From Flavobacterium sp. (lineage in GTDB: Bacteria; Bacteroidota; Bacteroidia; Flavobacteriales; Flavobacteriaceae), in NCBI RefSeq assembly GCF_024642105.1, contig NZ_JAHEBT010000056.1:22531-86530 (forward strand): DNA of 64,000 nucleotides. Reading direction: 5' to 3'. The notes beneath the pieces were generated by a model. The model made no database searches, had not been told where the DNA came from, and saw nothing but the letters and a program-made list of their open reading frames with translations. This document shows, piece by piece, positions 5,410 through 47,166 of the stretch. Numbering within the stretch: position 1 is the first letter of the stretch; every line of letters starts with the position of its first letter. The translations under genes were made by a program, and so were the position numbers.

Positions 5410-7167
5410 ATGAAAAAATACATACTCCTATTATTAATCAGTTTTCAAGGACTATTGGCTCAGGTACAATTTGAGGCAAAAGTCAGCAGAAACACGCTCG
5501 GTTTGAACGAAAGACTTCGAGTAGATTTTATAATGAATGTAGATGGGGATAATTTTATTCAGCCTAATTTTGAAGGCTTCCGAGTGATTGCAGGACCAAG
5601 TCAGCAAATCAGTCAATCATGGATTAACGGACGAAGTTCTTTTGAGAAAATATATTCTTATTTTTTGTTGCCTTTGCAAAAAGGGAATTTGGTAATCAAA
5701 CAAGCGGTGATTGAATTCAATGGGCAATTGTATAAAACTGCTCCTATTCGAGTTACAGTTACCAATCCGGTGCAACAACAAGCCGATCCAAACGATCCGA
5801 ATGCACCACAAATATCAGCTGATAATAACATTTATCTTGTAGCCGATATTTCTAAAACTAATCCGTACATCAATGAACCGATTACGGTGGTGTATAAATT
5901 GTATTTTAGTTACAATATTGGAATTACCAATTGGCGCGAGTTGAATAAGCCTAAATACAATGACTTTTGGAGTCAGAACATTGACATCAAACAATTAGTT
6001 GCCGAAGAAGGGATGTTCAAAGGACAACGCTATCGCTTTGTAACCTTGCGAAAAACAGTGCTATACCCTCAAAAATCAGGCCGTCTAAAAATCGAACCTT
6101 TGGCGTTAGATATAGATGTACAATTGCCAACTAATCGTAGGGATATGTTTGGTCGCGTAATGATTACCGAAGGCAACAAACGCGTTTCGGCAGGAACCAA
6201 AACAATAAATGTAAAAGCACTTCCTGAAGCGGGTAAACCAGAAGGTTTTACAGGAGCGGTGGGTAACTTTGATTTTAAAGTAACGCCAACAAAAACCAAT
6301 TTGAAAAACGGAGAAAGTTTGGATTTAGTGGTGAGTGTAAGCGGAAAAGGGAATCTAAAATTATTTGATTTACCCAAACCCGTAGCTCCGAATGCGCTCG
6401 AAATGTATGATGCGGTTCACAAAGAGAATGTTGATACAGGCTTGTCAGGAATGACGGGTAAAATATCGGATAGCTATACGATTGTGCCTCAGTACAAAGG
6501 AAAATATCCAATTAAACCGATGCAGTTTAGCTATTTTGACTTGAGTTCAGGAACTTACAAAACGCTAACATCAGAAGAAATATTAATTAATGTATTGGAC
6601 GGACCTACAGCAACACAAGCTGTGGCGTCAAATGCAGGTGCGAATAAAAACAAAATTGAAAAGTCAGAACAATTCAAATTCATCAAATTAAAAACAAAAT
6701 TAACGCCTTTACAACCTAATGATTTCTTTGGGTCGTTATGGTATTATGTATTGTTGTTATTGCCATTTATTGCGTTGCCAATAGTAGTGCTTCTTAGAAG
6801 AAGAAAAGAAGCATTGGATGGTGATGTGACTGGAAACAGAATCCGAATGAACAACCGATTGGCTAAAAAATATTTGTCAGAAGCCAAAAAACAAATCAAC
6901 AACAAAGAACCGTTTTATGTGGCTTTGGAAAAAGCAATGCACAATTTCTTGAAAGCCAAATTACACCTTGAAACTTCGGAAATGAGTAAAGACAATATTC
7001 AAGAATTGTTGTTGTCTCGCAATGCCAATCCAGAAGTGGTTACTGATTTTATTGCCTTAACTGAAAACTGTGAGTTCGCTCGTTATGCACCCGCCTCAAG
7101 CACGTCTATTCAGAATGATTTTGATAAAGCGGTAGTTATTATTTCAGAATTGGAAAAACAGATATAA
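5410..7167 (+). CDS. batD: BatD family protein
   Basis: Signal peptide, repeated Ig-like domains, C-terminal TM and CEFARYAP motif; operon position. Confidence 0.9.
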   Translation: MKKYILLLLISFQGLLAQVQFEAKVSRNTLGLNERLRVDFIMNVDGDNFIQPNFEGFRVIAGPSQQISQSWINGRSSFEKIYSYFLLPLQKGNLVIKQAVIEFNGQLYKTAPIRVTVTNPVQQQADPNDPNAPQISADNNIYLVADISKTNPYINEPITVVYKLYFSYNIGITNWRELNKPKYNDFWSQNIDIKQLVAEEGMFKGQRYRFVTLRKTVLYPQKSGRLKIEPLALDIDVQLPTNRRDMFGRVMITEGNKRVSAGTKTINVKALPEAGKPEGFTGAVGNFDFKVTPTKTNLKNGESLDLVVSVSGKGNLKLFDLPKPVAPNALEMYDAVHKENVDTGLSGMTGKISDSYTIVPQYKGKYPIKPMQFSYFDLSSGTYKTLTSEEILINVLDGPTATQAVASNAGANKNKIEKSEQFKFIKLKTKLTPLQPNDFFGSLWYYVLLLLPFIALPIVVLLRRRKEALDGDVTGNRIRMNNRLAKKYLSEAKKQINNKEPFYVALEKAMHNFLKAKLHLETSEMSKDNIQELLLSRNANPEVVTDFIALTENCEFARYAPASSTSIQNDFDKAVVIISELEKQI

Positions 7168-11866: not shown

Positions 11867-12070
11867 GGTAAAAAAAACAAAAAACACCAATTTATTCTAA
11901 TTGGCATTATCAGAAGTGATAGGCTTTAGCAATACAACGACTACATTTTTATTTATTTTTTTACACTGCTGCACAATAAAAAATAATAGTTTACGTTGTA
12001 AACTATTATTAATGAAGTTTTTATAGTTAAAAATGCACTTTGAGTTAGTTAGTTTTGTTTTTGTATTTTG

Positions 12071-12107
12071 AAAAGGCGTCCCACAGTAGTTAGTAGAACG
12101 CCTTTTT
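12071..12107 (-). terminator. Intrinsic terminator of the alcohol dehydrogenase gene
   Basis: AAAAGGCGT...ACGCCTTTT stem directly downstream of the stop. Confidence 0.6.
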
Positions 12108-12116
12108 GATTTTAAA

Positions 12117-13280
12117 CTAATAGCTCAATTCAACAATCTTACGCAGTTTGTCTAAAGTAAGGTTTTGTCTTTCTCCTAATGCTTTCCAACCTCTTTCTTC
12201 AAATCGATTTACGATAAAATCAGCTGTGTTTTCAATGTTAACAGCATTTTCAGAAATTTTGGTTTTCATTCCCATGGTGTGGTAAAAAGCTACGGTTGCT
12301 TCAATCGCTTGACGGGCAATTTCTTCCTCGGTTCCAGTCAATTGGAACACTCTTTTTCCGTATTGCGCTAATTTTTCTTTTTTGGTTTCAAATAAAACGC
12401 GGAATAGATTAGGGCCAATAATAGCCAATGTTCTGGCGTGGTCAATATTGTATAAAGCTGTTAATTCATGTCCAATCATGTGTGTCGCCCAGTCTGACGG
12501 AACGCCTTTTTGAATCAATCCGTTTAATGCCATGGTACAACTCCACATGAAGTTAGAGGCCAAGGTATAATCGGTTGGATTTTCGACTACTTGAGGCCCA
12601 ACTTCAATTAGGGTTTGTAAAATGCTTTCGGCAATTCGATCTTGTAAATAGCCTTCGTGCGGATAGGTTAAATATTGTTCCAAAACGTGAACATAAGCGT
12701 CAATAACACCATTTTGTAGTTGCCTTTTTGGTAAAGAAGCAATTACGCTTGGATCACAAATTGAAAACTTTGGAAACATAGCCGAACCACCAAAATCGCG
12801 TTTTTCTTGCGTTGCTTTTATAGAAACCACTGACCCTGAATTCATTTCACTTCCTGTAGCAGGCAAAGTTAGAACCGTTCCAAAAGGAACCACATCAGCA
12901 CCTTCTTTGAAGATGATTCTTTGGTGTAGAATGTCCATTGGATTGCCTTCAAATTTAACGGCAGCCGAGATGAATTTTACTCCGTCTATTACGCTTCCGC
13001 CACCCACAGCCAAAATGAAATCTATTTTTTGTTCGCGAATGATTTCCACAGCTTTCATCAACGTTTCATAATACGGGTTGGCTTCGATTCCGCCAAATTC
13101 CACCACATCAAAACCGTGTAGTGCCGTTTTTACTTGATCGTAAATTCCATTTTTAAAAATACTTCCACCGCCATAAGCGACTAATACTTTCGATTCTTTA
13201 GGAATTAAAGTACTTAATTTTTCTATTTCTCCTTTTCCAAAAATTAATTTGACAGGATTGTATAATTCAAAATTTAACAT
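12117..13280 (-). CDS. Iron-containing alcohol dehydrogenase (YqhD/Bdh-like)
   Basis: YGGGSI, AVGGGSVIDG, TLPATGSEMN, DWATHMIGHELTA, HARTLAI. Confidence 0.92.
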   Translation of the reverse strand: MLNFELYNPVKLIFGKGEIEKLSTLIPKESKVLVAYGGGSIFKNGIYDQVKTALHGFDVVEFGGIEANPYYETLMKAVEIIREQKIDFILAVGGGSVIDGVKFISAAVKFEGNPMDILHQRIIFKEGADVVPFGTVLTLPATGSEMNSGSVVSIKATQEKRDFGGSAMFPKFSICDPSVIASLPKRQLQNGVIDAYVHVLEQYLTYPHEGYLQDRIAESILQTLIEVGPQVVENPTDYTLASNFMWSCTMALNGLIQKGVPSDWATHMIGHELTALYNIDHARTLAIIGPNLFRVLFETKKEKLAQYGKRVFQLTGTEEEIARQAIEATVAFYHTMGMKTKISENAVNIENTADFIVNRFEERGWKALGERQNLTLDKLRKIVELSY

Positions 13281-19173: not shown

Positions 19174-19239
19174 CCACGGATTTTACAGATTATACTGATT
19201 TTCACGGATAAAATCCGTTGAATCCGTTAAATCTGTGGC
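19174..19239. repeat. Gene-less element with the ends of the GxxExxY cassette (nonamer-periodic MITE)
   Basis: ACGGATTTTACAGATT (19176-19191) is identical to 44781-44796; the right arm matches 45213-45240 at 23 of 28 nt. Confidence 0.8.
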
Positions 19240-20008: not shown

Positions 20009-20040
20009 CGTCATTGCGAGGAGGAACGACGAAGCAATCT
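20009..20040. repeat. CGTC-tagged REP-like element
   Basis: CGTCATTGCGAGGAGGAACGACGAAGCAATCT starts at the first base after the recO stop. Confidence 0.75.
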
Positions 20041-20182
20041 AACACAGATTTCACGAATTTCTCAGATTGGTTGAGTACTTCTTATTAAAAGTACCCACAC
20101 GGAAGGATTTGTGTGAAAGTGACTGTTTTTCAATTCTCTTAAATTTTAATGATCTGTGGTAATCTGTGCAATCTGTGTTAGA
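20038..20182. repeat. Nonamer-periodic MITE-like element with 13-bp perfect terminal inverted repeats
   Basis: TCTAACACAGATT (20038-20050) and AATCTGTGTTAGA (20170-20182); arms built of ACAGATT-like 9-nt units. Confidence 0.75.
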
Positions 20183-20238: not shown

Positions 20239-20264
20239 AGCTATTGCCTTTTGCCTTTTGCCTA
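20239..20264. repeat. TTGCCT(A/T) heptamer half-element
   Basis: CTATTGCCTTTTGCCTTTTGCCTA; same family as 13959-14026. Confidence 0.55.
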
Positions 20265-20272
20265 TAAATCAT

Positions 20273-20280
20273 TACTTTCG
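20273..20280 (+). promoter_or_regulatory. -7 promoter element of ileS (TAnnTTCG variant)
   Basis: TACTTTCG about 25 nt upstream of ATG 20305. Confidence 0.5.
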
Positions 20281-20304
20281 CAACTCGATTTAGAAAAGCA
20301 TACC

Positions 20305-23300
20305 ATGAGCACAAAATTTACTGAATACAAAGGACTTGACTTGCCAAAATCGGCAGAAGAAGTGCTGGATTTTTGGAAGAAAGAAACGATATTTGAGAAA
20401 ACGGTAACTACCCGTGAGGGGAATCCGCCGTACGTGTTTTTTGAGGGGCCGCCTTCGGCAAATGGCTTGCCAGGAATTCACCACGTGATGGCACGTGCTA
20501 TTAAAGATATTTTTTGTCGCTATAAAACTCAAAAAGGGTTCCAAGTAAAGCGTAAAGCAGGTTGGGATACCCACGGTTTGCCGGTTGAATTAGGTACCGA
20601 AAAAGAATTGGGAATTACCAAAGAAGACATTGGTAAAACCATCACCGTAGAAGAATACAACGAGGCGTGCAAACGCACCGTGATGCGCTATACTGACGTT
20701 TGGAACGATCTAACGGAGAAAATGGGGTATTGGGTAGATATGGAAGATCCGTATGTGACGTACAAACCTAAATATATGGAAACCGTGTGGTGGTTGTTGA
20801 AACAAATCTACAACAAGGATTTGATGTACAAAGGGTACACCATTCAGCCGTACTCGCCAAAAGCAGGGACAGGATTGTCTTCGCACGAGGTGAATCAACC
20901 AGGTTCGTACCGCGATGTAACGGACACTACCATTGTAGCACAGTTCAGAAGCCCCCTAACCCCCGAAGGGGGAATTGGTAGCAATTCAATTTTAAAAGCA
21001 TTTGGTCTTAGCTCCCCTCCTTTGGAGGGGCTGGGGGAGGCTTTTTTCTTGGCTTGGACGACAACACCTTGGACTTTGCCATCGAATACCGCTTTGACTG
21101 TAGGTTCAAAAATTGATTATGTGTTGGTGAAAACCTTCAATCAATATACGTTCTTACCAACGAATGTCATTTTGGCTAAAAACTTGGTGGGAAAACAATT
21201 TGGCAAAACGTTTTTCGAATCGGCAGAAGCTGCTGATTTTGAAAATTTCAAAGCAGGAGATAAGAAAATTCCATTTCAAATTTTGGCGGAAGCCAAAGGA
21301 GCGGACTTGGTTGGAATTCGTTACGAGCAATTGATGCCGTTGGCTTTGCCGTATCAAAATGCTGAAGATGCGTTCCGTGTGATTGCAGGAGATTTCGTTA
21401 CTACCGAAGACGGAACAGGAATTGTACATACCGCGCCTACTTTTGGTGCAGATGATGCTAAAGTGGCGGCAGCAGCTACTCCCGAAGTGCCGCCAATGTT
21501 GGTTTTGGACGAAAATGGTACGCCAGTTCCTTTGGTGGATTTACAAGGTAAATTTGTAAATGGACTAGGTGATTTATCAGGTAAATACGTTAAAAACGAA
21601 TACTATAACGAGGGTGAAGCACCAGAGCGTTCTGCCGATGTAGAAATTGCGATTCAGTTAAAAGAAGAAAATAAGGCGTTCAAAGTGGAAAAATACGTCC
21701 ACAGTTACCCACATTGTTGGAGAACGGATAAGCCTATTTTATATTACCCATTGGATTCTTGGTTCATCAAGATTACCGAAGTGCGTGACCGTATGTTTGA
21801 CTTGAACGATTCCATCAACTGGAAGCCAAAAGCTACAGGTGAAGGTCGTTTTGGAAACTGGTTGAAAAACGCTAACGATTGGAATTTATCGCGTTCTAGA
21901 TATTGGGGAATTCCGTTGCCAATTTGGAGAACCGAAGACAAACAAGAAGAAATCTTGATTGGTTCGGTTGAAGAATTGTACCACGAAATTGAAAAATCAA
22001 TTCAGGCGGGTTGTCAAAAAACAAATCCGTTTGCTGGTTTCGAAATTGGAAACATGTCGGAAGCGAATTATGATTTGATTGATTTGCACAAAAATGTAGT
22101 GGACGAAATCACTTTGGTTTCTGCTTCAGGAAAACCAATGCAACGCGAAAGCGATTTGATTGACGTTTGGTTTGATTCAGGCGCAATGCCTTATGCACAA
22201 TGGCATTACCCATTTGAAAATAAAGAACTTATAGATGGCGTTTGTCATTCCGAACTTGTTTCGGAATCTAAAGAGGAGAACCTGAAACAAGTTCAGGTTG
22301 ACAAGCGTATGTTTCCAGCTGATTTTATTGCTGAAGGAGTCGATCAAACCCGTGGTTGGTTTTATACTTTGCACGCTATTGGAACTTTGGTTTTTGACAA
22401 AATCGCGTATAAAAATGTGGTTTCTAACGGATTGGTATTGGACAAAAACGGACAGAAAATGTCGAAACGTTTAGGAAATGCCGTTGATCCTTTTGAAACT
22501 TTGAAAGAATATGGTCCAGATGCGACGCGTTGGTACATGATATCCAATGCGAATCCTTGGGATAATTTAAAGTTTGACTTGGAAGGAATTGCTGAGGTGC
22601 GTCGTAAGTTCTTCGGGACCTTATACAACACCTATTCGTTCTTTAGTTTGTATGCCAATATCGATGGTTTTACCTATTCAGAAGCTGAGATTCCGTTGGC
22701 AGAACGCCCAGAAATTGACCGTTGGATTATATCAGAATTGAATACGTTGATTAAAGATGTCGATGGTTTTTATGCTGATTATGAACCAACCAGAGCGGCT
22801 CGTGCGATTTCTGATTTTGTTCAGGAAAACTTGAGTAACTGGTACGTTCGTTTGTGCAGAAGACGTTTTTGGAAAGGGGAGTATGCGCAAGATAAAATCG
22901 CTGCTTACCAAACCTTATACACTTGTTTGTTAAGTATAAGTAAATTGGCTGCACCAATTGCGCCATTTTATATGGATAAATTATACAGAGACTTAACACA
23001 AGCGACACATTCAGAAGGTTTTGAGAGTGTACATTTGGCAAAATTTCCAGAATACGTTGAAAACTTTGTTGATAAATCGTTGGAAAGCAAAATGCAAAAA
23101 GCCCAAACGATTTCATCATTGGTATTGTCGCTTCGTAAAAAAGAGATGATTAAAGTGCGTCAACCTTTGCAAAAGGTAATGATTCCGGTACTTGACAACA
23201 ATCAAAGAGCTGAAATCGAAGCAGTATCAGACTTGATAAAAGCGGAAGTAAACGTAAAAGAAATTGTGCTTTTAGACGATGCTTCGGGGATTTTGGTCAA

Positions 23301-23814
23301 ACAAATTAAACCTAATTTCAAGACATTAGGACCTCGTTTTGGAAAAGACATGGGCTTGATTTCTAAGGAGATACAAGGATTTTCGCCAGATCAAATCAAT
23401 GAATTGGAACGCGAAGGAAGTTTAGCTATTGTTATTGCGGGAAATACCGTATCTTTAACTATAGAAGATGTAGAAATTACATCGCAGGATATTGAAGGTT
23501 GGTTAGTGGCTAATTCTAACGGAATTACAGTAGCGTTAGACATTACCATTTCGGCAGAATTGAAACAAGAAGGGATTGCGAGAGAATTGGTCAACCGAAT
23601 TCAAAATATCCGTAAAGATTCAGGGTTTGAAGTAACAGATAAAATTAAAGTGACGTTACAACACAATGCCGAATTACAAGCAGCCGTAGTGGCTAATGAA
23701 GAGTACATCAAGTCAGAAACCTTAACCGAAAGTTTGGTTTTTGAAAATGAAGTAGCTAACGGATTAGAAATAGAATTTGACGATATAAAAACAAGAATAA
23801 TAATCACTAAATAA
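20305..23814 (+). CDS. ileS: Isoleucine--tRNA ligase, type 2, with two in-frame repeat-derived inserts
   Basis: FFEGPPSANGLPGIHH, GWDTHGLPVE, AWTTTPWTLPSN, DWNLSRSRYWG, FIAEGVDQTRGW, KMSKR. Confidence 0.98.
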   Translation: MSTKFTEYKGLDLPKSAEEVLDFWKKETIFEKTVTTREGNPPYVFFEGPPSANGLPGIHHVMARAIKDIFCRYKTQKGFQVKRKAGWDTHGLPVELGTEKELGITKEDIGKTITVEEYNEACKRTVMRYTDVWNDLTEKMGYWVDMEDPYVTYKPKYMETVWWLLKQIYNKDLMYKGYTIQPYSPKAGTGLSSHEVNQPGSYRDVTDTTIVAQFRSPLTPEGGIGSNSILKAFGLSSPPLEGLGEAFFLAWTTTPWTLPSNTALTVGSKIDYVLVKTFNQYTFLPTNVILAKNLVGKQFGKTFFESAEAADFENFKAGDKKIPFQILAEAKGADLVGIRYEQLMPLALPYQNAEDAFRVIAGDFVTTEDGTGIVHTAPTFGADDAKVAAAATPEVPPMLVLDENGTPVPLVDLQGKFVNGLGDLSGKYVKNEYYNEGEAPERSADVEIAIQLKEENKAFKVEKYVHSYPHCWRTDKPILYYPLDSWFIKITEVRDRMFDLNDSINWKPKATGEGRFGNWLKNANDWNLSRSRYWGIPLPIWRTEDKQEEILIGSVEELYHEIEKSIQAGCQKTNPFAGFEIGNMSEANYDLIDLHKNVVDEITLVSASGKPMQRESDLIDVWFDSGAMPYAQWHYPFENKELIDGVCHSELVSESKEENLKQVQVDKRMFPADFIAEGVDQTRGWFYTLHAIGTLVFDKIAYKNVVSNGLVLDKNGQKMSKRLGNAVDPFETLKEYGPDATRWYMISNANPWDNLKFDLEGIAEVRRKFFGTLYNTYSFFSLYANIDGFTYSEAEIPLAERPEIDRWIISELNTLIKDVDGFYADYEPTRAARAISDFVQENLSNWYVRLCRRRFWKGEYAQDKIAAYQTLYTCLLSISKLAAPIAPFYMDKLYRDLTQATHSEGFESVHLAKFPEYVENFVDKSLESKMQKAQTISSLVLSLRKKEMIKVRQPLQKVMIPVLDNNQRAEIEAVSDLIKAEVNVKEIVLLDDASGILVKQIKPNFKTLGPRFGKDMGLISKEIQGFSPDQINELEREGSLAIVIAGNTVSLTIEDVEITSQDIEGWLVANSNGITVALDITISAELKQEGIARELVNRIQNIRKDSGFEVTDKIKVTLQHNAELQAAVVANEEYIKSETLTESLVFENEVANGLEIEFDDIKTRIIITK
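20950..21042. repeat. G/C-rich double-hairpin element inserted in-frame in ileS (31 codons)
   Basis: CCCCC-GAA-GGGGG and CCCCTCC-TTT-GGAGGGG hairpins in inverted arms; translates as SPLTPEGG...SPPLEGLGEA. Confidence 0.8.
22243..22303. repeat. TGTCA-tagged REP doublet inserted in-frame in ileS (20 codons)
   Basis: TGTCATTCCGAACTTGTTTCGGAATCT...AGAACCTGAAACAAGTTCAGGTTGACA; homologous to intergenic 14666-14727. Confidence 0.9.
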
Positions 23815-42913: not shown

Positions 42914-43453
42914 TTAAATAAAATCCGGAGGGGAATAAGGTAAGGAAAGATGTCCTGGATTAGTAAAGTCAACTCCATTGGTTGTGAATAAACTAATAGA
43001 AGCAACTGCTTTTGTTTGCATAGGAATGCTCACTTCAGGATTGTCGATATAATCTTTGATAAACGATTTTAATAATTTTTTTACTGGAGAATCTTTCGAA
43101 GATCCACTATTGAATAATTGATTATCCACAATGTCATTCAAGTCTTTACTAACTGTATTTTCGTTGGTATTAGGCAAGTAATACAAACTCAAAACATTGT
43201 CTTTTACTTGTTTTTTAAAGATGTGATAGCTTTTGTTATTGATAATTACATCTTCATTCACTTCTTCAAATTCGGTATCATCGGCGAAGGAATACAAAGA
43301 AGCATTCAAACGCATTACACGAAAATCAGTATGACTCGTTTTTTCCATACGCGCTACCCATGCTTGCTGTTCTTGGTAAGCAAACATTAAATAATAACCT
43401 ATCATGTTATAGAACAAGGTTACGATTAAAAAAAGGGTGGCTATTCTTTTCAT
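42914..43453 (-). CDS. Hypothetical protein with an N-terminal TM/signal segment and a C-terminal PP motif
   Basis: 179-aa ORF ending SLPYSPPDFI; upstream TACTTTCG promoter-like element at 43459-43466. Confidence 0.7.
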   Translation of the reverse strand: MKRIATLFLIVTLFYNMIGYYLMFAYQEQQAWVARMEKTSHTDFRVMRLNASLYSFADDTEFEEVNEDVIINNKSYHIFKKQVKDNVLSLYYLPNTNENTVSKDLNDIVDNQLFNSGSSKDSPVKKLLKSFIKDYIDNPEVSIPMQTKAVASISLFTTNGVDFTNPGHLSLPYSPPDFI

Positions 43454-43538
43454 TGTGCCGAAAGTAGAAAACTATTTGATTGGCTTGCCCTTTTAAGATT
43501 CTATTTTAACATTTTTTTAACAAAAACAAAGTGATTCC

Positions 43539-43562
43539 AAAATCGAAACCGATTTCGATTTT
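43539..43562. promoter_or_regulatory. Palindrome upstream of bioF (candidate operator)
   Basis: AAAATCGAAA-CCGA-TTTCGATTTT between divergent genes. Confidence 0.35.
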
Positions 43563-43616
43563 TCCAATCATACAAGTTTCTAAATTTCAAGAAACCAAAA
43601 GATCAAAAAATTGCCT

Positions 43617-43624
43617 TATTTTTG
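43617..43624 (+). promoter_or_regulatory. -7 promoter element of the bio operon
   Basis: TATTTTTG, 6 nt before ATG 43631. Confidence 0.5.
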
Positions 43625-43630
43625 TCGAGT

Positions 43631-44779
43631 ATGAAAAAATTACCTGTAACTCTTTCAGATAAATTAGCACTTCGGTTGCAAAACAACGCACTAAGGCAGT
43701 TGCCAAAAGCTTCTGGCTTGGTTGATTTTGCTTCGAATGATTATTTGGGTTTTTCCAATTCCAGTGTAATTTTTGAAGCTACACATCAGTATTTGTTAGA
43801 CCATAATCAGAAACAAAATGGCGCTACCGGTTCCCGACTGCTTTCGGGGAATCATACTGTTTATCATACTGCTGAAGACTATATTGCTCAATTTCACCAA
43901 GCACCAGCAGCCTTAATTTTCAATTCGGGATATGATGCGAATGTGGGATTTTTTAGTGCCGTTCCTCAAAAAGGAGATTTGATTTTGTACGATGAATTGT
44001 GTCATGCGTCCATTCGTGACGGAATCCAATTATCGAATGCAAAAGCCTATAAATTCCAACACAATGACTTGGAAGATTTAGAACGATTGTTAGTTCGACA
44101 TCCGGATACGACTATTTATATTGTTACCGAATCGGTTTTTTCAATGGATGGTGATACGCCTAATTTGGAAGAATTAGTCCAATTGGCTGAAAAACACAAA
44201 GCCTATGTAGTGGTTGATGAGGCACATGCTTTGGGAGTTTTAGGCGAAAAAGGAGAAGGGTTGGTGCAAAGTCTAAATTTACAAGAAACTGTTTTTGCTC
44301 GAATCATGACTTTTGGCAAAGGATTGGGTTGCCATGGAGCTGCCATTCTAGGAGGAGAGGATTTAAAAAGTTATTTGGTTAATTTTGCTCGGAGTTTTAT
44401 CTATACAACGGGTTTATCACCCCATTCGGTTGCGACTATTTTGACCGCTTACGAGCAGTTGGAGAAAGCAACGGATAGCCAACAACTATTAAAAAATAAC
44501 ATCGCTCATTTCAATCAAGAAAAGAATCGGTTGAGTTTAAAACCGTTGTTTGTTCGAAGTAAATCGGCTATTCAATCGGCTATAATTCCGGGGAATGAAA
44601 GAGTCAAAGGCATAGCACAACAACTGCAAAGTAAGGGGTTTGATGTGAAACCCATCTTGTCTCCTACTGTTCCAGAAGGGCAAGAACGCTTACGGTTTTG
44701 TTTGCACAGCTTCAATTCAGAACAAGAAATAACCGAAGTATTGCGATTGTTGAGTACTTTTGTTTTTAGCCACGGATAA
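43631..44779 (+). CDS. bioF: 8-amino-7-oxononanoate synthase
   Basis: FASNDYLG, GATGSRLLSG, DELCHASI, TESVFSMDGD, VDEAHA, TFGKGLG, RPILSPTV-like tail; last codons come from the inserted repeat. Confidence 0.93.
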   Translation: MKKLPVTLSDKLALRLQNNALRQLPKASGLVDFASNDYLGFSNSSVIFEATHQYLLDHNQKQNGATGSRLLSGNHTVYHTAEDYIAQFHQAPAALIFNSGYDANVGFFSAVPQKGDLILYDELCHASIRDGIQLSNAKAYKFQHNDLEDLERLLVRHPDTTIYIVTESVFSMDGDTPNLEELVQLAEKHKAYVVVDEAHALGVLGEKGEGLVQSLNLQETVFARIMTFGKGLGCHGAAILGGEDLKSYLVNFARSFIYTTGLSPHSVATILTAYEQLEKATDSQQLLKNNIAHFNQEKNRLSLKPLFVRSKSAIQSAIIPGNERVKGIAQQLQSKGFDVKPILSPTVPEGQERLRFCLHSFNSEQEITEVLRLLSTFVFSHG

Positions 44780-45243
44780 AACGGATTTTACAGATTTACA
44801 CGGATTATTATGACTACTTTATTACATAAAACAATTACCGATGCAGTCTTAAAAATATACTTTGATGTATATAATCAACTTGGATCTGGGTTTCTTGAAA
44901 AGGTGTACCAAAATGCAATGTATTTTGAATTAAAGAATAAAGGGTTTAAAGTAGAAGCTCAAAAACAAATTAAAGTATATTTTAGGAAACAACTTGTTGG
45001 GGAGTATTATGCCGATTTAATAGTTGAAGATAAGGTTATTGTTGAATTAAAAGCGACTGAATTACTTATGAATGTCCATGTGGCTCAAACATTGAATTAC
45101 TTAAAGGCGACAGAAATTGAAGTTGGGTTATTATTAAATTTTGGTGAAGAACCTGAATTCAAACGCATGATATATACAAACAACAGAAAAATTAATTTAA
45201 AAAATCAGTGATAATCCGTTTCATCCGTTTTATCCGTGGCTAA
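44766..45243. mobile_element. Putative minimal mobile cassette: GxxExxY gene between 41-bp inverted repeats
   Basis: TTAGCCACGGATAAAACGGAT (44766-44786) is the exact reverse complement of 45223-45243; the full arms match at 34 of 41 nt. Confidence 0.7.
44810..45211 (+). CDS. GxxExxY protein (PD-(D/E)XK-like nuclease fold)
   Basis: GFLEKVY motif (44888-44908), ADLIVEDKVIVELKA, GLLLNFG; 133 aa. Confidence 0.92.
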   Translation: MTTLLHKTITDAVLKIYFDVYNQLGSGFLEKVYQNAMYFELKNKGFKVEAQKQIKVYFRKQLVGEYYADLIVEDKVIVELKATELLMNVHVAQTLNYLKATEIEVGLLLNFGEEPEFKRMIYTNNRKINLKNQ

Positions 45244-45244
45244 T

Positions 45245-45865
45245 ATGAAATTATTTATAACAGGCATTTCGACCGATGTAGGCAAAACAATTGCTTCGGC
45301 AATTATTGTGGAAGCGCTCCACGCGGATTATTGGAAACCCATCCAGGCAGGCGATTTGGAACACTCGGATACGCATAAAGTACAAGATTTGATTTCGAAT
45401 ACACAATCACAATTTCATCCGAATAGCTACGCTTTGCAAACTCCGGCAAGTCCTCATTTAGCTGCTGCAAAAGACGGAATAACTATCGATTTGAACCAAA
45501 TTCAAGAACCTCAAACCAAGAATCACTTGGTCATTGAAGGAGCGGGAGGCATTTTGGTTCCGCTTAATGAAACACAATCGGTGGTGGATATTATTCAATC
45601 GGATTATAAAGTAATTGTGGTGTCGCGCCATTATTTAGGCAGTATTAATCATACTTTATTGACGGTAGAAGCCCTACAAAACCGAAAATTATCCATTGCA
45701 GGAATTATTTTTTCTGGCGAAGAAAATACAAGTTCTGAATCTATAATTTTAAACAGAACAGGTTTGCCGTGTATTGGCAGAATTGCCCAAGAACCGTATT
45801 TTGATACCAACGTCATAGTAGAATATGCCGATTTATTTCGAGAAAACCTTTTGAAATTGCAATAA
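45245..45865 (+). CDS. bioD: Dethiobiotin synthase
   Basis: ITGISTDVGKT, WKPIQAG, IEGAGG, LGSINHT. Confidence 0.96.
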   Translation: MKLFITGISTDVGKTIASAIIVEALHADYWKPIQAGDLEHSDTHKVQDLISNTQSQFHPNSYALQTPASPHLAAAKDGITIDLNQIQEPQTKNHLVIEGAGGILVPLNETQSVVDIIQSDYKVIVVSRHYLGSINHTLLTVEALQNRKLSIAGIIFSGEENTSSESIILNRTGLPCIGRIAQEPYFDTNVIVEYADLFRENLLKLQ

Positions 45866-45867
45866 CA

Positions 45868-47166
45868 ATGTCAAAATTCAATAGCAAAAATCCAATGAGT
45901 TTAACCGAAAAAGACAATCAATTCCTTTGGCATCCCTATACACAGCATAAGACCGCTTCGGCTCCTATTGCCATTACAAAAGGGAAAGGCGCATTGTTGT
46001 GGGATGAAAACGATAAAGAATATATTGATGCGATTGCGTCTTGGTGGGTGAATCCGTACGGACATTCTAATACCTACATTGCTGATGCGATTTACAAACA
46101 ACTGACTACTTTAGAACACGTGCTTTTTGGCGGATTTACGCATGAACCTGCTGTAGTTTTGGCTGAAAAATTGATGGCGATTTTACCCAAAAATCAACAA
46201 AAATTATTCTTTTCAGACAATGGATCTACCGCTGTAGAAGTGGCGATTAAAGTGGCGTTGCAGTATTTTTTCAATAAAGGAGAAAAGAAAACAACGATAA
46301 TTGCTTTTGAAAATGCCTTTCATGGCGATACTTTTGCGGCTATGGCAGCGAGTGGTATTTCTTTTTTTACAGATGCTTTTCAAGGAATGTTTATTGATGT
46401 AATTCGGATTCCTGTTCCTGTTGTTGGACAGGAAGAAGTTAGTTTTAACGCTTTGGCGAAAGCCCTAAAAATCCACCATTGTGCTGGATTTATCTACGAA
46501 CCTTTGGTACAAGGTGCCGCAGGAATGGTGATGTATGAACCCGCTGCTTTGGATACCTTAATTCGAATGTGTAAAGAAAATAAGGTGTTGACCATTGCTG
46601 ATGAAGTGATGACGGGATTTGGCAAAACAGGAAAAACCTTTGCATCGGATTATTTGGTAGAACAGCCCGATATGATGTGTTTGTCCAAAGCCTTAACAGG
46701 CGGTACGATTCCGATGGCAATTACGACCTTTACCCAACCTATTTTTGATACTTTTTATGACGAAGATATTAATAAGGCCTTGTTTCACGGACATACGTTT
46801 ACGGCGAATCCGACAGGTTGTGCGGCGGCTTTAGCGAGTTTGAAATTGTTGCAAACTCCTGAAATGCAAGCCAATATTTTGCGAGTAAATGCGAATCATT
46901 TGGCTTTTGAAAAACGGGTTAAATCACATCCAAAAGTAGTAACTACCCGAGTGTTAGGCGTTATTTTTGCTTTGGAAATCAAGACGGAATCGGCTGCAAG
47001 TTATTATGGAAATTTGCGTAACAAACTCTATAATTTCTTTATTGAAAACGGGGTGGTATTACGTCCTGTGGGCAATATTGTGTACATTTTGCCTCCTTAT
47101 ATAATTACGGACGAGCAATTAGAAAAAGTCTATCAAGTGGTCGAAAGTGCTCTTGAAATAGTGTAA
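45868..47166 (+). CDS. bioA: Adenosylmethionine--8-amino-7-oxononanoate transaminase
   Basis: WHPYTQH, DAIASWWVN, DNGSTAVEVAIK, IADEVMTGFG, LSKALTGG, HGHTFTANP. Confidence 0.96.
   Translation: MSKFNSKNPMSLTEKDNQFLWHPYTQHKTASAPIAITKGKGALLWDENDKEYIDAIASWWVNPYGHSNTYIADAIYKQLTTLEHVLFGGFTHEPAVVLAEKLMAILPKNQQKLFFSDNGSTAVEVAIKVALQYFFNKGEKKTTIIAFENAFHGDTFAAMAASGISFFTDAFQGMFIDVIRIPVPVVGQEEVSFNALAKALKIHHCAGFIYEPLVQGAAGMVMYEPAALDTLIRMCKENKVLTIADEVMTGFGKTGKTFASDYLVEQPDMMCLSKALTGGTIPMAITTFTQPIFDTFYDEDINKALFHGHTFTANPTGCAAALASLKLLQTPEMQANILRVNANHLAFEKRVKSHPKVVTTRVLGVIFALEIKTESAASYYGNLRNKLYNFFIENGVVLRPVGNIVYILPPYIITDEQLEKVYQVVESALEIV

Follow-up and report, generated by a model that had tools for sequence, protein, structure and literature searches.

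A GxxExxY nuclease-family gene framed by inverted heptamer arrays in the Flavobacterium biotin operon, apparently one member of a widespread cassette

RESULTS AND DISCUSSION

Genes of the GxxExxY family, together with inverted arrays of a short heptamer, apparently form a widespread and undescribed cassette built around a gene of ~400 bp. The copy presented here lies between two biotin genes of a Flavobacterium sp. contig, within a stretch of 64,000 nucleotides that was analyzed as a whole (hereafter the window). As the best explanation of the arrangement we favor, tentatively and with somewhat less than even confidence, a REP/RAYT (REPIN)-like system with an unrelated enzyme, a Cas4/RecB-like PD-(D/E)XK nuclease that putatively acts on the arms of the cassette. 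A full-text literature search, which does not reach subscription journals or the family notes of databases, returned no published description of an association between GxxExxY genes and repeats, and two large surveys that name the family give it an unknown function or a passing mention (PMC3424549, PMC8934634).

A GxxExxY gene and its arms fill the bioF-bioD junction

The features of the biotin locus are as follows.

43622..44779, + strand: bioF (8-amino-7-oxononanoate synthase; TIGR00858 E=1e-106, PF00155)
44766..44809, + strand: left arm, four 9-nt units with the core (C/A)ACRGAT (CACGGAT, AACGGAT, TACAGAT, CACGGAT)
44810..45211, + strand: GxxExxY gene, 133 aa (PF13366, TIGR04256; predicted small PD-(D/E)XK nuclease)
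45204..45243, + strand: right arm, four units (ATCAGTG, ATCCGT, ATCCGT, ATCCGTG, final ..GGCTAA)
45245..45865, + strand: bioD (dethiobiotin synthase; TIGR00347 E=3e-39)

A further biotin gene, bioA, neighbors bioF, the GxxExxY gene, and bioD. The preliminary description of this DNA had reported a 133-aa GxxExxY ORF between arms whose outer 21 bp form a perfect inverted repeat, and this was borne out: TTAGCCACGGATAAAACGGAT occurs at 44766-44786 on the forward strand and at 45223-45243 on the reverse strand with 0 mismatches, and no further site was found in the window at up to 3 mismatches. The arms are ~40 nt long, and a repeat search stretches their pairing to 62-nt arms at 74% complementarity. 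The 9-nt internal periodicity attributed to them is also present, with four units on the left (CACGGAT-AA-AACGGAT-TT-TACAGAT-TT-ACACGGAT) and four ATC(C/A)GT units on the right. A chance origin of the inverted repeat was considered and rejected, because 0 matches to the 21-mer TTAGCCACGGATAAAACGGAT are expected by chance (100 shuffles) and flanks across the whole family also beat shuffles.

Both arms run into coding sequence. The last three codons and stop of bioF (SHG*) fall within the left arm in the window, as first described, and in relatives bioF terminates at ..FVF*, with the TAG immediately before CCAC. One T is absent from the bioF end in the window and its clade relative to these genomes, so that the bioF frame enters the left arm by three codons. 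On the other side, the GxxExxY stop (45209-45211) lies inside the innermost right-arm unit and the repeat ends at 45243, leaving the single base before the bioD ATG at 45245 that the preliminary description had placed there. This ATG is likely the bioD start, and the MKLFITG.. N terminus is kept in all relatives; the ORF list also offers a GTG at 45236, upstream, as a possible alternative. In the window TA stands on both sides of the cassette, which is not general.

A predicted nuclease with a Cas4/RecB-like core

By its signature and by its modeled core fold, the GxxExxY protein belongs to the PD-(D/E)XK nuclease superfamily, and nuclease activity is predicted. It matches PF13366 (PDDEXK_3; E=2.4e-40, 138 bits against a cut-off of 22) and TIGR04256 (GxxExxY; E=9.4e-39, 132.4 bits against a cut-off of 35), both over the full length. 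E30, which belongs to the GxxExxY motif, is conserved together with D69 and E79-x-K81, and E30, D69, E79, and K81 are invariant in 40 sequences. The AlphaFold2 model (pLDDT 90.6) has an alpha-alpha-beta-beta-beta-alpha-beta-beta topology, and its best Foldseek match is SSO0001 (4ic1; E=3e-5), which we take to be a Cas4 protein, followed by lambda-exonuclease-like enzymes; lambda exonuclease, RecE, and MGME1 are the structural matches besides SSO0001. With its catalytic E, D, and ExK residues intact, the modeled protein looks like a nuclease with a Cas4/RecB-like core, and the PD-(D/E)XK-like fold assigned to the family at the outset is upheld by the invariant residues, the modeled fold, and the Foldseek matches.

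Other searches returned little. A sequence search of the PDB with this protein gave nothing at E<=0.01, the PADLOC defense library yielded only a marginal match to a type IIG REase domain (E=0.008), no PHROGs phage family matched, and a scan of viral contigs recovered one locus only. No partner gene of the kind that a toxin-antitoxin reading would call for was found inside the arms. The family comprises 15,565 clusters at 50% identity and is indeed widespread, as had been stated, and it is reported to be multi-copy in some phyla, unlike RAYTs. The companion claim that it is multi-copy does not hold in Flavobacterium, where each locus has one copy and 1.5 Mb of Flavobacteriaceae DNA contained no paralogue outside the biotin locus.

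CRCDGAT arrays frame the family as a whole

The flanking inverted repeats that the preliminary description expected around GxxExxY genes are general. In 64 of 74 diverse unrelated GxxExxY loci the inverted repeat in the flanks scores above the best of 20 shuffles (median, 34.5 versus 15.2). Each arm is an array of 2-4 CRCDGAT heptamers at a spacing of 9-10 nt, and this motif is ~12-fold enriched in the flanks in an orientation-specific manner: in a set of 67 loci we counted 150 units in forward orientation upstream and 163 in reverse orientation downstream, against a background of 0.18-0.21 per 120 nt, and only 5 of the 67 are devoid of any unit. The consensus of the cassette termini is (TTA)GCCRCNGAT...ATCNGYGGC(TAA). 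The same termini flank a 46%-identical GxxExxY gene on a high-GC contig, and the copy in Bacteroides finegoldii has the unit variant CRCRGAG. Start and stop of the ORF overlap the inner units in a register that is fixed across phyla, and the N- and C-terminal extensions of family proteins (MNADERR.. and ..IRVHPRKSAV) read as translated arms. Variable positions of the units agree at 0.72-0.75 within an element versus 0.53 between elements; the units are homogenized within an element.

Cassettes at other operon junctions repeat the setting seen at the biotin locus. Because other members occupy unrelated junctions (for example, upstream of ispF, between PolX and ffh, and between radA and an FAD protein), a link to biotin synthesis was rejected, which agrees with the initial statement that the family is unrelated to this pathway.

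ORF-less hairpins carry the same motif

Two elements of the same motif that lack an ORF occur elsewhere in the window.

19174..19238, no strand assigned: ORF-less hairpin in the gdhA/recO intergenic region, CCACGGATTTTACAGATTATACTGATTTTCACGGAT-AAA-ATCCGTTGAATCCGTTAAATCTGTGG
20041..20179, no strand assigned: second ORF-less element, in the recO/ileS intergenic region, with arms AACACAGATTTCACGAATTTCTCAGATT and ATCTGTGGTAATCTGTGCAATCTGTGTT ~85 nt apart

Such hairpins far outnumber cassettes and are scattered in intergenic DNA. We counted ~60 CRCDGAT arrays in the Flavobacterium loci, one of which (L037) has tandem hairpins adjoining its cassette, and hairpin copy number differs between close relatives. 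Flavobacterium loci that have lost the cassette at the bio locus still contain hairpins, and contigs on which CRCDGAT hairpins are common contained 0 GxxExxY genes in 1.08 Mb. In DNA sampled by means of the arm motif, loops of <100 nt were found in 60 of 73 forward-to-reverse pairs and in no pair of the reversed arrangement. Among pairs with large loops, 47 of 52 enclose a GxxExxY gene, the rest being GxxExxY pseudogenes or chance pairs, and cargo from any other gene family was absent from the sampled DNA, which is biased toward GxxExxY loci. Complementarity at the motif positions is full in only 11 of 81 hairpins, while spacers match at 0.45 in register versus 0.32-0.36 otherwise.

The abundance of hairpins where no GxxExxY gene occurs would be expected if they made up a REP-like family in their own right, serving the host or mobilized by an enzyme of their own, in whose loops GxxExxY genes preferentially land or survive, the arms then being a target. 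The GxxExxY genes that sit between two complete hairpins, not inside one (L104, L112, L141, and L171), and the bioF-bioD junction of other species, which holds at least 3 other small repeat types, fit this explanation as well. What related cassettes at different sites have in common, however, is not only the ORF but also the sequence of the arms and details of the spacers, with similarity ending at the arm termini, and co-transfer therefore fits better than repeated landing. Since the fixed register of ORF start and stop over the inner units and the restriction of large-loop cargo to one family (again in a sample biased toward GxxExxY loci) also speak against it, we consider the independent origin of the hairpins quite unlikely.

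The bio-locus cassette is old and has been lost repeatedly

At the biotin locus the cassette is old, fixed, and without visible mobility; its inheritance has been mainly vertical, and selection has acted on the protein as well as on the arms. The GxxExxY gene is syntenic directly upstream of bioD in many Flavobacterium species, with dN/dS of 0.04-0.09 at dS of 0.5 to >1.7, and BioD and BioA are under purifying selection of equal strength. Between orthologous loci the left arm is 72-93% and the right arm 65-93% identical, versus 15-57% at 4-fold sites of the ORF. The match to host phylogeny is loose: GxxExxY identity correlates with that of host genes at r=0.11-0.43, compared with 0.71 for BioD versus BioA, and two cassette types occupy the same bio site. 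In two loci (L048 and L020) matching changes are found on both arms, for which homogenization or cassette replacement could equally be responsible.

In an ancestor of a Flavobacterium clade the cassette was inserted precisely behind the bioF stop and ahead of the bioD start, and it was lost repeatedly afterwards, by deletion with arm remnants or by replacement with other repeats. Its presence varies at the bioF-bioD junction among relatives, and an alignment of these junctions, from which the preliminary description had hoped for empty sites, contained none that was clean: the "empty" alleles of close relatives are deletion derivatives in which an arm or the ORF end survives in pieces, or they hold another repeat. 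Among close relatives without the gene, arm remnants persist in L013 and L015-17 and a different repeat in L012, the closest relative, from which exactly CCACGG...CCGTGGCT is absent between TAG and AATATG. The right arm persists alone, with the ORF lost, in L013 and L028, the former being an internally deleted derivative at the bio locus. Only in distant gene-less relatives do bioF and bioD abut.

Relocation over longer times and the case for a transposon

Over longer times the arms and the ORF relocate as one discrete unit. Three cassettes at three unrelated sites (L132, L147, and L161) are 78-82% identical, and their similarity ends exactly at AGCC...GGCT. We found no direct repeat at the termini that could represent a target-site duplication in the window, in the bio-locus orthologues, or in these three cassettes, and no pair of cassettes at different sites is >=90% identical. 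Assembled contigs from four DNA metagenome and four RNA-type runs contained no excision or empty-site joints, a search in which rare events would be missed because it used assembled contigs. The strain itself occurs in river and lake metagenomes (runs X1-X20). No DDE or HUH transposase was found near the cassette. The proposal in the preliminary description that the cassette spreads without such a transposase thus stands in part: a discrete unit does occur at unrelated sites with neither enzyme nearby, while the bio-locus copy is syntenic and under purifying selection, with no duplication, near-identical copy, or joint to show for recent movement.

The most direct reading of such a unit is an autonomous minimal transposon, in which GxxExxY would be the transposase, binding the arrays at both ends, cutting the inverted-repeat termini, and reinserting the cassette, with the hairpins as MITE-like, internally deleted derivatives. 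It would account for a unit bounded exactly by its inverted repeat and found in related form at unrelated sites, for the family-wide framing, for the tandem ORF-less hairpins beside the L037 cassette, for the L013 derivative and the exact absence in L012, and for the poor tracking of host genes and the two cassette types at one site. We nevertheless judge it unlikely. Besides the missing target-site duplication, near-identical pairs, and metagenome joints, a gene with one copy per Flavobacterium locus and no paralogue, fixed under strong purifying selection while synonymous sites have become saturated, would be unusual for a selfish element; its losses leave ragged remnants instead of clean sites, and it is very rare on plasmids (8 of 72,556 records).

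The arms in the transcript

The cassette sits in its operon in a manner that also suggests a role for the arms as RNA. Among 34 loci, 28 cassettes are co-oriented with both neighbors and none is opposed to both, and the arms occupy the gap between the stop of one neighbor and the start of the next. The long-range stem predicted for the arms (minimum free energy, -120.7 kcal/mol; z=-4.3) has 21 perfect base pairs and covers the GxxExxY AUG, with the bioD AUG one base past the stem. A scan for sigma-70 promoters and intrinsic terminators across 43400-46000, not tuned to Bacteroidota promoters, gave nothing above shuffles; as it has no evident promoter and is co-oriented with both neighbors, GxxExxY probably owes its expression to read-through from the host operon. 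A metatranscriptome contig spans 45026-45176 of the ORF.

It is possible, at a low probability in our estimate, that the arms act mainly at this level, as an intervening sequence or insulator: the stem would be cut by RNase III, or would hold the upstream stop and downstream start together while silencing the ORF, and the nuclease would be a host-useful or tolerated passenger with no action on the arms. The strength and position of the predicted stem, the orientation bias, the fit of the arms to the stop-to-start space, arm conservation in excess of neutral sites, and the metatranscriptome contig are all consistent with this. Against it, complementarity at variable motif positions is 0.75 in register versus 0.72 off register, and we claim no compensatory evolution because in-register covariation is no higher than off-register. 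The asymmetry of G-U wobbles, a test of RNA or single-strand structure versus duplex recognition, was weak in cassettes (81 versus 61) and not significant in hairpins (19 pure versus 14.1 expected; p about 0.065), so that mismatches have no clear one-strand G-U pattern. The invariant C.C.GAT positions favor sequence recognition over pairing alone, hairpins are frequent also where an operon context is not evident, and Rfam returned no family at the arms at gathering or permissive thresholds.

A REP/RAYT-like arrangement with a different enzyme

Under the REP/RAYT-like explanation, which we prefer, GxxExxY would be a low-copy, long-lived nuclease gene flanked by repeats that its own product recognizes. 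We hypothesize that the nuclease binds the heptamer arrays and cuts at or near the hairpin or cruciform that they form, that it acts in trans on the dispersed hairpins, and that it generates, moves, or maintains them, while its own cassette would have been moved only rarely. The predicted pairing of the arms in the mRNA would hide the start codon of the nuclease and bring the base of the stem up to the bioD start, so that the insertion would remain cheap for the operon. Hairpins on contigs free of GxxExxY, and in Flavobacterium loci without a bio-locus cassette, count against this model, as do the multiple copies reported for the family in some phyla and arm units that are not strictly complementary in register; the recognized form may accordingly be duplex or hairpin. 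Cas4/RecB-like nucleases are also typically end-processing and not site-specific enzymes, which likewise weighs against the model.

The parallel with known REP systems is close in several respects. RAYT genes are described as single-copy, vertically inherited genes with flanking REPs (PMC2817692, PMC3116915, PMC5581495). Both systems pair a vertically inherited nuclease gene of low copy number with a short palindrome-forming repeat, inverted copies of which stand on either side of the gene. Many further copies of this repeat lie dispersed as ORF-less hairpins, mostly between genes (in the window at 19174-19238 and 20041-20179, with more in related loci), and the arrangement persists over long evolutionary times. 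GxxExxY has the low copy number and vertical inheritance of RAYTs, being syntenic upstream of bioD across species and without a paralogue in 1.5 Mb, but its congruence with host genes is only loose. The enzymes differ, the RAYT being of the HUH/Y1 IS200/IS605 type whereas here the only match is PF13366, with a PD-(D/E)XK fold; the repeats differ too, being heptamer arrays at 9-10-nt spacing here and single stem-loops with a GTAG-type head in REPs.

Insertion sequences and MITEs also have terminal inverted repeats that bound one small gene, ORF-less derivatives, and related copies at unrelated sites, but here we found no DDE, serine, or HUH transposase, no target-site duplication, and no recent multi-copy burst, and purifying selection acts on a gene that is fixed at one site. 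The free-standing genes of homing endonucleases, such as those of T4-like phages, likewise encode small nucleases, are wedged tightly between two co-oriented, conserved genes, and are present at a junction in some relatives but absent in others; unlike GxxExxY genes they are without inverted-repeat arms and belong to different nuclease families, and the "empty" alleles seen here are deletion remnants or other repeats in which no intact recognition site was seen. A PD-(D/E)XK homing enzyme does exist, I-Ssp6803I, and is intron-borne.

The intervening sequences of 23S rRNA (S23p four-helix-bundle proteins; PF05635/TIGR02436) similarly place a small ORF within inverted repeats that form a long stem in a host transcript, and are tolerated inside an essential transcription unit; S23p-type genes may carry arms similar to those of GxxExxY. 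They are located in rRNA, whereas the cassette lies in the spacer of an mRNA operon, has another ORF family, and would undergo RNase III processing only by prediction. TnsA of Tn7 and the Rpn/YhgA-like proteins (PDDEXK_2) are PD-(D/E)XK enzymes tied to DNA mobility, but TnsA depends on the DDE protein TnsB for its action, and Rpn proteins exceed GxxExxY in size and lack arms of this kind; beyond the shared superfamily, no relationship in sequence between GxxExxY and either of them was detected.

GxxExxY is one of the larger families of unknown function (>15,000 clusters at 50% identity), and its near-constant DNA partner, an inverted heptamer array, is an obvious substrate on which a testable hypothesis of function can be built. 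Should the nuclease indeed make or move the repeats, it would represent a second, independent solution to the REP/RAYT arrangement, and a repeat family found from Bacteroidota to Acidobacteriota would gain both a name and an origin. The broader claim, that GxxExxY cassettes constitute a new minimal DNA transposon class or REP-generating system whose sole protein is a ~130-aa PD-(D/E)XK nuclease recognizing inverted CRCDGAT arrays, would explain thousands of operon-junction insertions across bacterial phyla together with a very large unnamed hairpin population; we put it on the unlikely side. For annotation, the cassette accounts for the recurrent spurious extensions of family peptides and for small insertions within operons, such as the one in the biotin operon.

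Anatomy of the cassette and its generality

The cassette interrupts the biotin operon of the window between bioF and bioD, with bioA and then a ketoacyl-synthase-like gene following:

43622..44779, bioF, upstream neighbour of the GxxExxY gene
44810..45211, + strand, GxxExxY gene, 133 aa; PF13366 (PDDEXK_3), E=2.4e-40; TIGR04256 (GxxExxY), E=9.4e-39
45245, ATG of bioD, downstream neighbour of the GxxExxY gene

The preliminary description of this anatomy proved accurate. The 21-mer TTAGCCACGGATAAAACGGAT stands at 44766-44786 (+) and 45223-45243 (-), and no further copy with ≤3 mismatches was found in the window (shuffles: 0 expected). ACRGAT is the core of the 9-nt units that make up both arms; the 3' end of bioF falls within the left arm, the GxxExxY stop codon lies inside the innermost unit of the right arm, and the repeat stops a single base short of the bioD ATG. 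BioF of relatives usually ends ..LLSTFVF*, with TAG directly before CCAC, and bioF of the window's clade runs three codons into the arm because one T is missing there.

Residues E30, D69, E79, and K81 of the GxxExxY protein are invariant. A search of PDB sequences detected no relative. The best structural neighbour of its confident AlphaFold2 model (pLDDT 90.6) is the SSO0001 protein of 4ic1 (E=3e-5, TM 0.57), which we take to be a Cas4, followed by the lambda-exonuclease, RecE, and MGME1 group and, lower, by tRNA-splicing endonucleases.

The family is large (15,565 clusters at 50% identity), and database notes on it may mention multi-copy occurrence. Many members, P0121-P0127, P0133, and P0140 among them, are 250-275 aa long and contain two tandem GxxExxY domains, arising either from fusion of adjacent cassettes or as a true double-domain form. 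A metagenome scan gave 80 diverse GxxExxY loci (GC 0.26-0.68), and the flanking inverted repeat exceeded the best of 20 shuffles in 64/74, which bears out the proposed enrichment of such repeats around these genes. Units of the form C[AG]C[ACGT]GAT numbered 150 forward upstream and 163 reverse downstream in 67 loci, over a background of ∼0.2 per 120 nt, and only 5/67 had no array. Most taxa space their units 10 nt apart. The window has a 9-nt spacing, as does a Bacteroides finegoldii copy that uses the unit CRCRGAG and is flanked by radA and the gene for an FAD protein. The same termini, here GCCACGGAT...ATCCGTGGC, enclose a 46%-identical gene on a high-GC contig, and terminal extensions of family members (MNADERR.., HGLTRKNTDEE.., ..IRVHPRKSAV, ..IRFNLSKSVV) are readable as translated arm units. 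Where the flanks were long enough to judge (34 cassettes), both neighbours share the cassette's orientation in 28 and both run against it in 0, and the arms fill the space from the neighbour's stop to the start. Several operon junctions, such as that upstream of ispF, recur in diverged contigs, repeating the long-residence pattern of the bio locus.

Arm units in two related loci (L148 and L156) contain CATGAT/TATGAT (opposite side: ATCATAA) instead of CRCDGAT, which shows how far the heptamer can drift while the architecture stays. The gene in low-GC loci L104, L112, L138, L141, L153, L170, and L171 lies between two complete hairpins rather than inside one arm pair, and several of these hairpins are direct repeats that match one another almost exactly.

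The biotin locus in relatives

Proteins 82-100% identical to the window's are abundant, and every copy looked up is encoded directly upstream of bioD. A BioD scan with one genome per species gave 80 loci; the Flavobacterium junction holds the cassette in the window, L014, L008, L005, L031, L035, L020, L024, L037, L041, and L048, and a damaged one in L047, L018, and L025. Purifying selection constrains the gene as tightly as it does its neighbours (dN/dS 0.04-0.09 versus 0.05-0.12 for BioD and BioA), at synonymous divergences from 0.5 up to saturation. Arm identity in the same comparisons is 65-93%, versus 15-57% at 4-fold sites of the ORF; thus both protein and arms are being kept. GxxExxY identity tracks that of host genes loosely (BioA, r=0.11; BioD, r=0.43; for comparison, BioD with BioA, r=0.71) and two cassette types occupy the site, so there may have been some exchange between lineages.

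Empty sites, sought by comparing bioF-bioD junctions, exist but are not clean, holding remnants or other repeats. L013 (BioD 92% identical to the window's) retains 162 nt comprising the ORF's last codons and the entire right arm, and L028 the right arm alone. The gap in L015-L017 (85-87%) is 11-12 nt, with bioF ending ..FVFGH*/GN* on ggtcactgataaagcggata, the left arm's first two units. The closest relative, L012 (97%), lacks exactly CCACGG...CCGTGGCT between TAG and AATATG and has in its place (6123-6182) a 60-nt array built from another repeat (CTTTGTG/CTTAGCG type), also seen at this junction in L021, L029, L036, L040, L042, and L045. The 47-49-nt spacer of L023, L032, L034, and L043 is filled by yet another small palindromic element, ccctgtcagggtt (..caccctgtcagggttcaaaaccctgacagggt..), the third kind at this junction, and in more distant genera bioF and bioD abut or enclose a 137-aa gene of another kind. 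Given outgroups that carry the cassette, parsimony dates the insertion to before the window's clade, the gaps being secondary losses.

The L012-type repeat belongs to a second 9-10-nt periodic family (CTTTGCG/CTTTGTG/CTTAGCG; forward form CRCAAAG), usually a single reverse-oriented array just 5' of bioD, with a full hairpin in L036 and an array directly before the cassette's left arm in L005 (3760-3800). Extra DNA separates bioF from the cassette in L005-L007, L031, L035, and L024, where the cassette remains beside bioD; this insert of ∼3 kb in Flavobacterium sp. 9R and relatives encodes a TraB/GumN-family protein, an ECF sigma factor, and a probable anti-sigma protein, and the left arm in this group is displaced to ∼155 nt upstream of the ATG. 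The conserved ∼137-aa gene occurs in L026, L033, L046, L052-L058, L061, L064, L067-L074, and L079-L089, that is, in many marine Flavobacteriaceae and a few Flavobacterium. Its product (..ARFQYSSEAQI.KG.L...GIE.FL.D...DTDPL.S.AIGGVKL.. then CPxC...C..C) looks like a small domain with a zinc ribbon and a membrane segment, apparently unrelated to GxxExxY.

Mobility and hairpins without a gene

The cassette had been proposed to be an autonomous transposon. Cassettes of L132, L147, and L161, at three unrelated sites, are 78-82% identical, and their similarity starts and stops exactly at AGCCRCAGAT...ATCTGCGGCT, with no target duplication at any of the three. No pairs ≥90% identical were found at different sites; arms and ORF therefore move as one, though seldom. 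Plasmids hardly ever carry the gene (8/72,556 records), and the anticipated excision joints did not appear in public-metagenome contigs holding the window strain; one metatranscriptome contig spans part of the ORF. We consider autonomous transposition unlikely.

The same arrays also occur as hairpins without an ORF, two of them in the window:

19174-19238, ORF-less hairpin
20041-20179, ORF-less hairpin

Flavobacterium loci hold ∼60 arrays of the cassette repeat, including three tandem 145-bp modules directly upstream of the cassette in L037 (600-990), each a hairpin of this type with a 36-nt loop. A sample of viral contigs chosen by arm motif alone (120 loci, 1.08 Mb) had loops of <100 nt in 60/73 forward-to-reverse pairs, never a reverse-to-forward gap of <50 nt, and no GxxExxY gene. 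With the framing data, these hairpins imply that nearly every gene has arms and most arms have no gene. The hairpins might be an independent repeat family in which the gene lands, which we think rather improbable.

Downstream of bioA, the F. succinicans group has a spacer with 1-4 composite modules; the window's clade lacks this spacer. These modules (L005 6461-7020; L019 and L027-L031, ∼11930-12500; ∼100-140 nt each) combine a CGCAAAG-type forward and an ATCCGTG-type reverse array, and their tandem number differs between close relatives.

How the arms may be read

The unit has an invariant C.C.GAT, with positions 2 and 4 variable. These match at 0.72-0.75 among units within an element versus 0.53 between elements, with no gain from being in register; for spacers the gain is slight. 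Full complementarity at motif positions is limited to 11/81 hairpins, and the kinds of mismatch in the 81 pick out no single strand. The arms thus look more like inverted, repeated recognition sites than a structure held by pairing alone, the perfectly paired outer 21 bp in the window being an exception. Within the transcript, the window's arms are predicted to form a long stem (z=-4.3), hiding the GxxExxY start and stopping one base short of that of bioD; that the arms act mainly at the RNA level seems doubtful to us.

We tentatively give most weight to an arrangement like that of REP repeats and their RAYT genes (PMC2817692, PMC3116915, PMC5581495), with a PD-(D/E)XK enzyme taking the place of the HUH transposase. 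The nuclease gene, persistent and low in copy number, would be flanked by repeats on which the nuclease acts, and the large population of ORF-less hairpins would belong to the same arrangement. The data show the cassette's anatomy and how general it is, selection on gene and arms, how copies are lost, and where the unit ends; any protein-arm contact we infer. The four readings are compatible in some details. Full-text searches turned up the family in a superfamily survey, which lists it as unknown, and in passing annotation, and found no account of the gene-repeat association.

The recO-ileS spacer of the window is a stack of repeats of different families, including a short GC-rich hairpin-type repeat, gtcattgcgaggaggaacgacgaagcaatc, directly 3' of recO (20010-20040) and adjoining a CACAGAT-type element. 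Two in-frame stretches of ileS (20251..23814) resemble inserted palindromic repeats: 20950-21048 (..SPLTPEGGIGSNSILKAFGLSSPPLEGLGEAFF.., with cccccgaaggggg and cccctcctttggagggg hairpins) and 22237-22308 (..GVCHSELVSESKEENLKQVQVDKR..; cattccgaacttgtttcggaat / ctgaaacaagttcag). If these insertions are real, an essential tRNA synthetase tolerates peptides derived from repeats.
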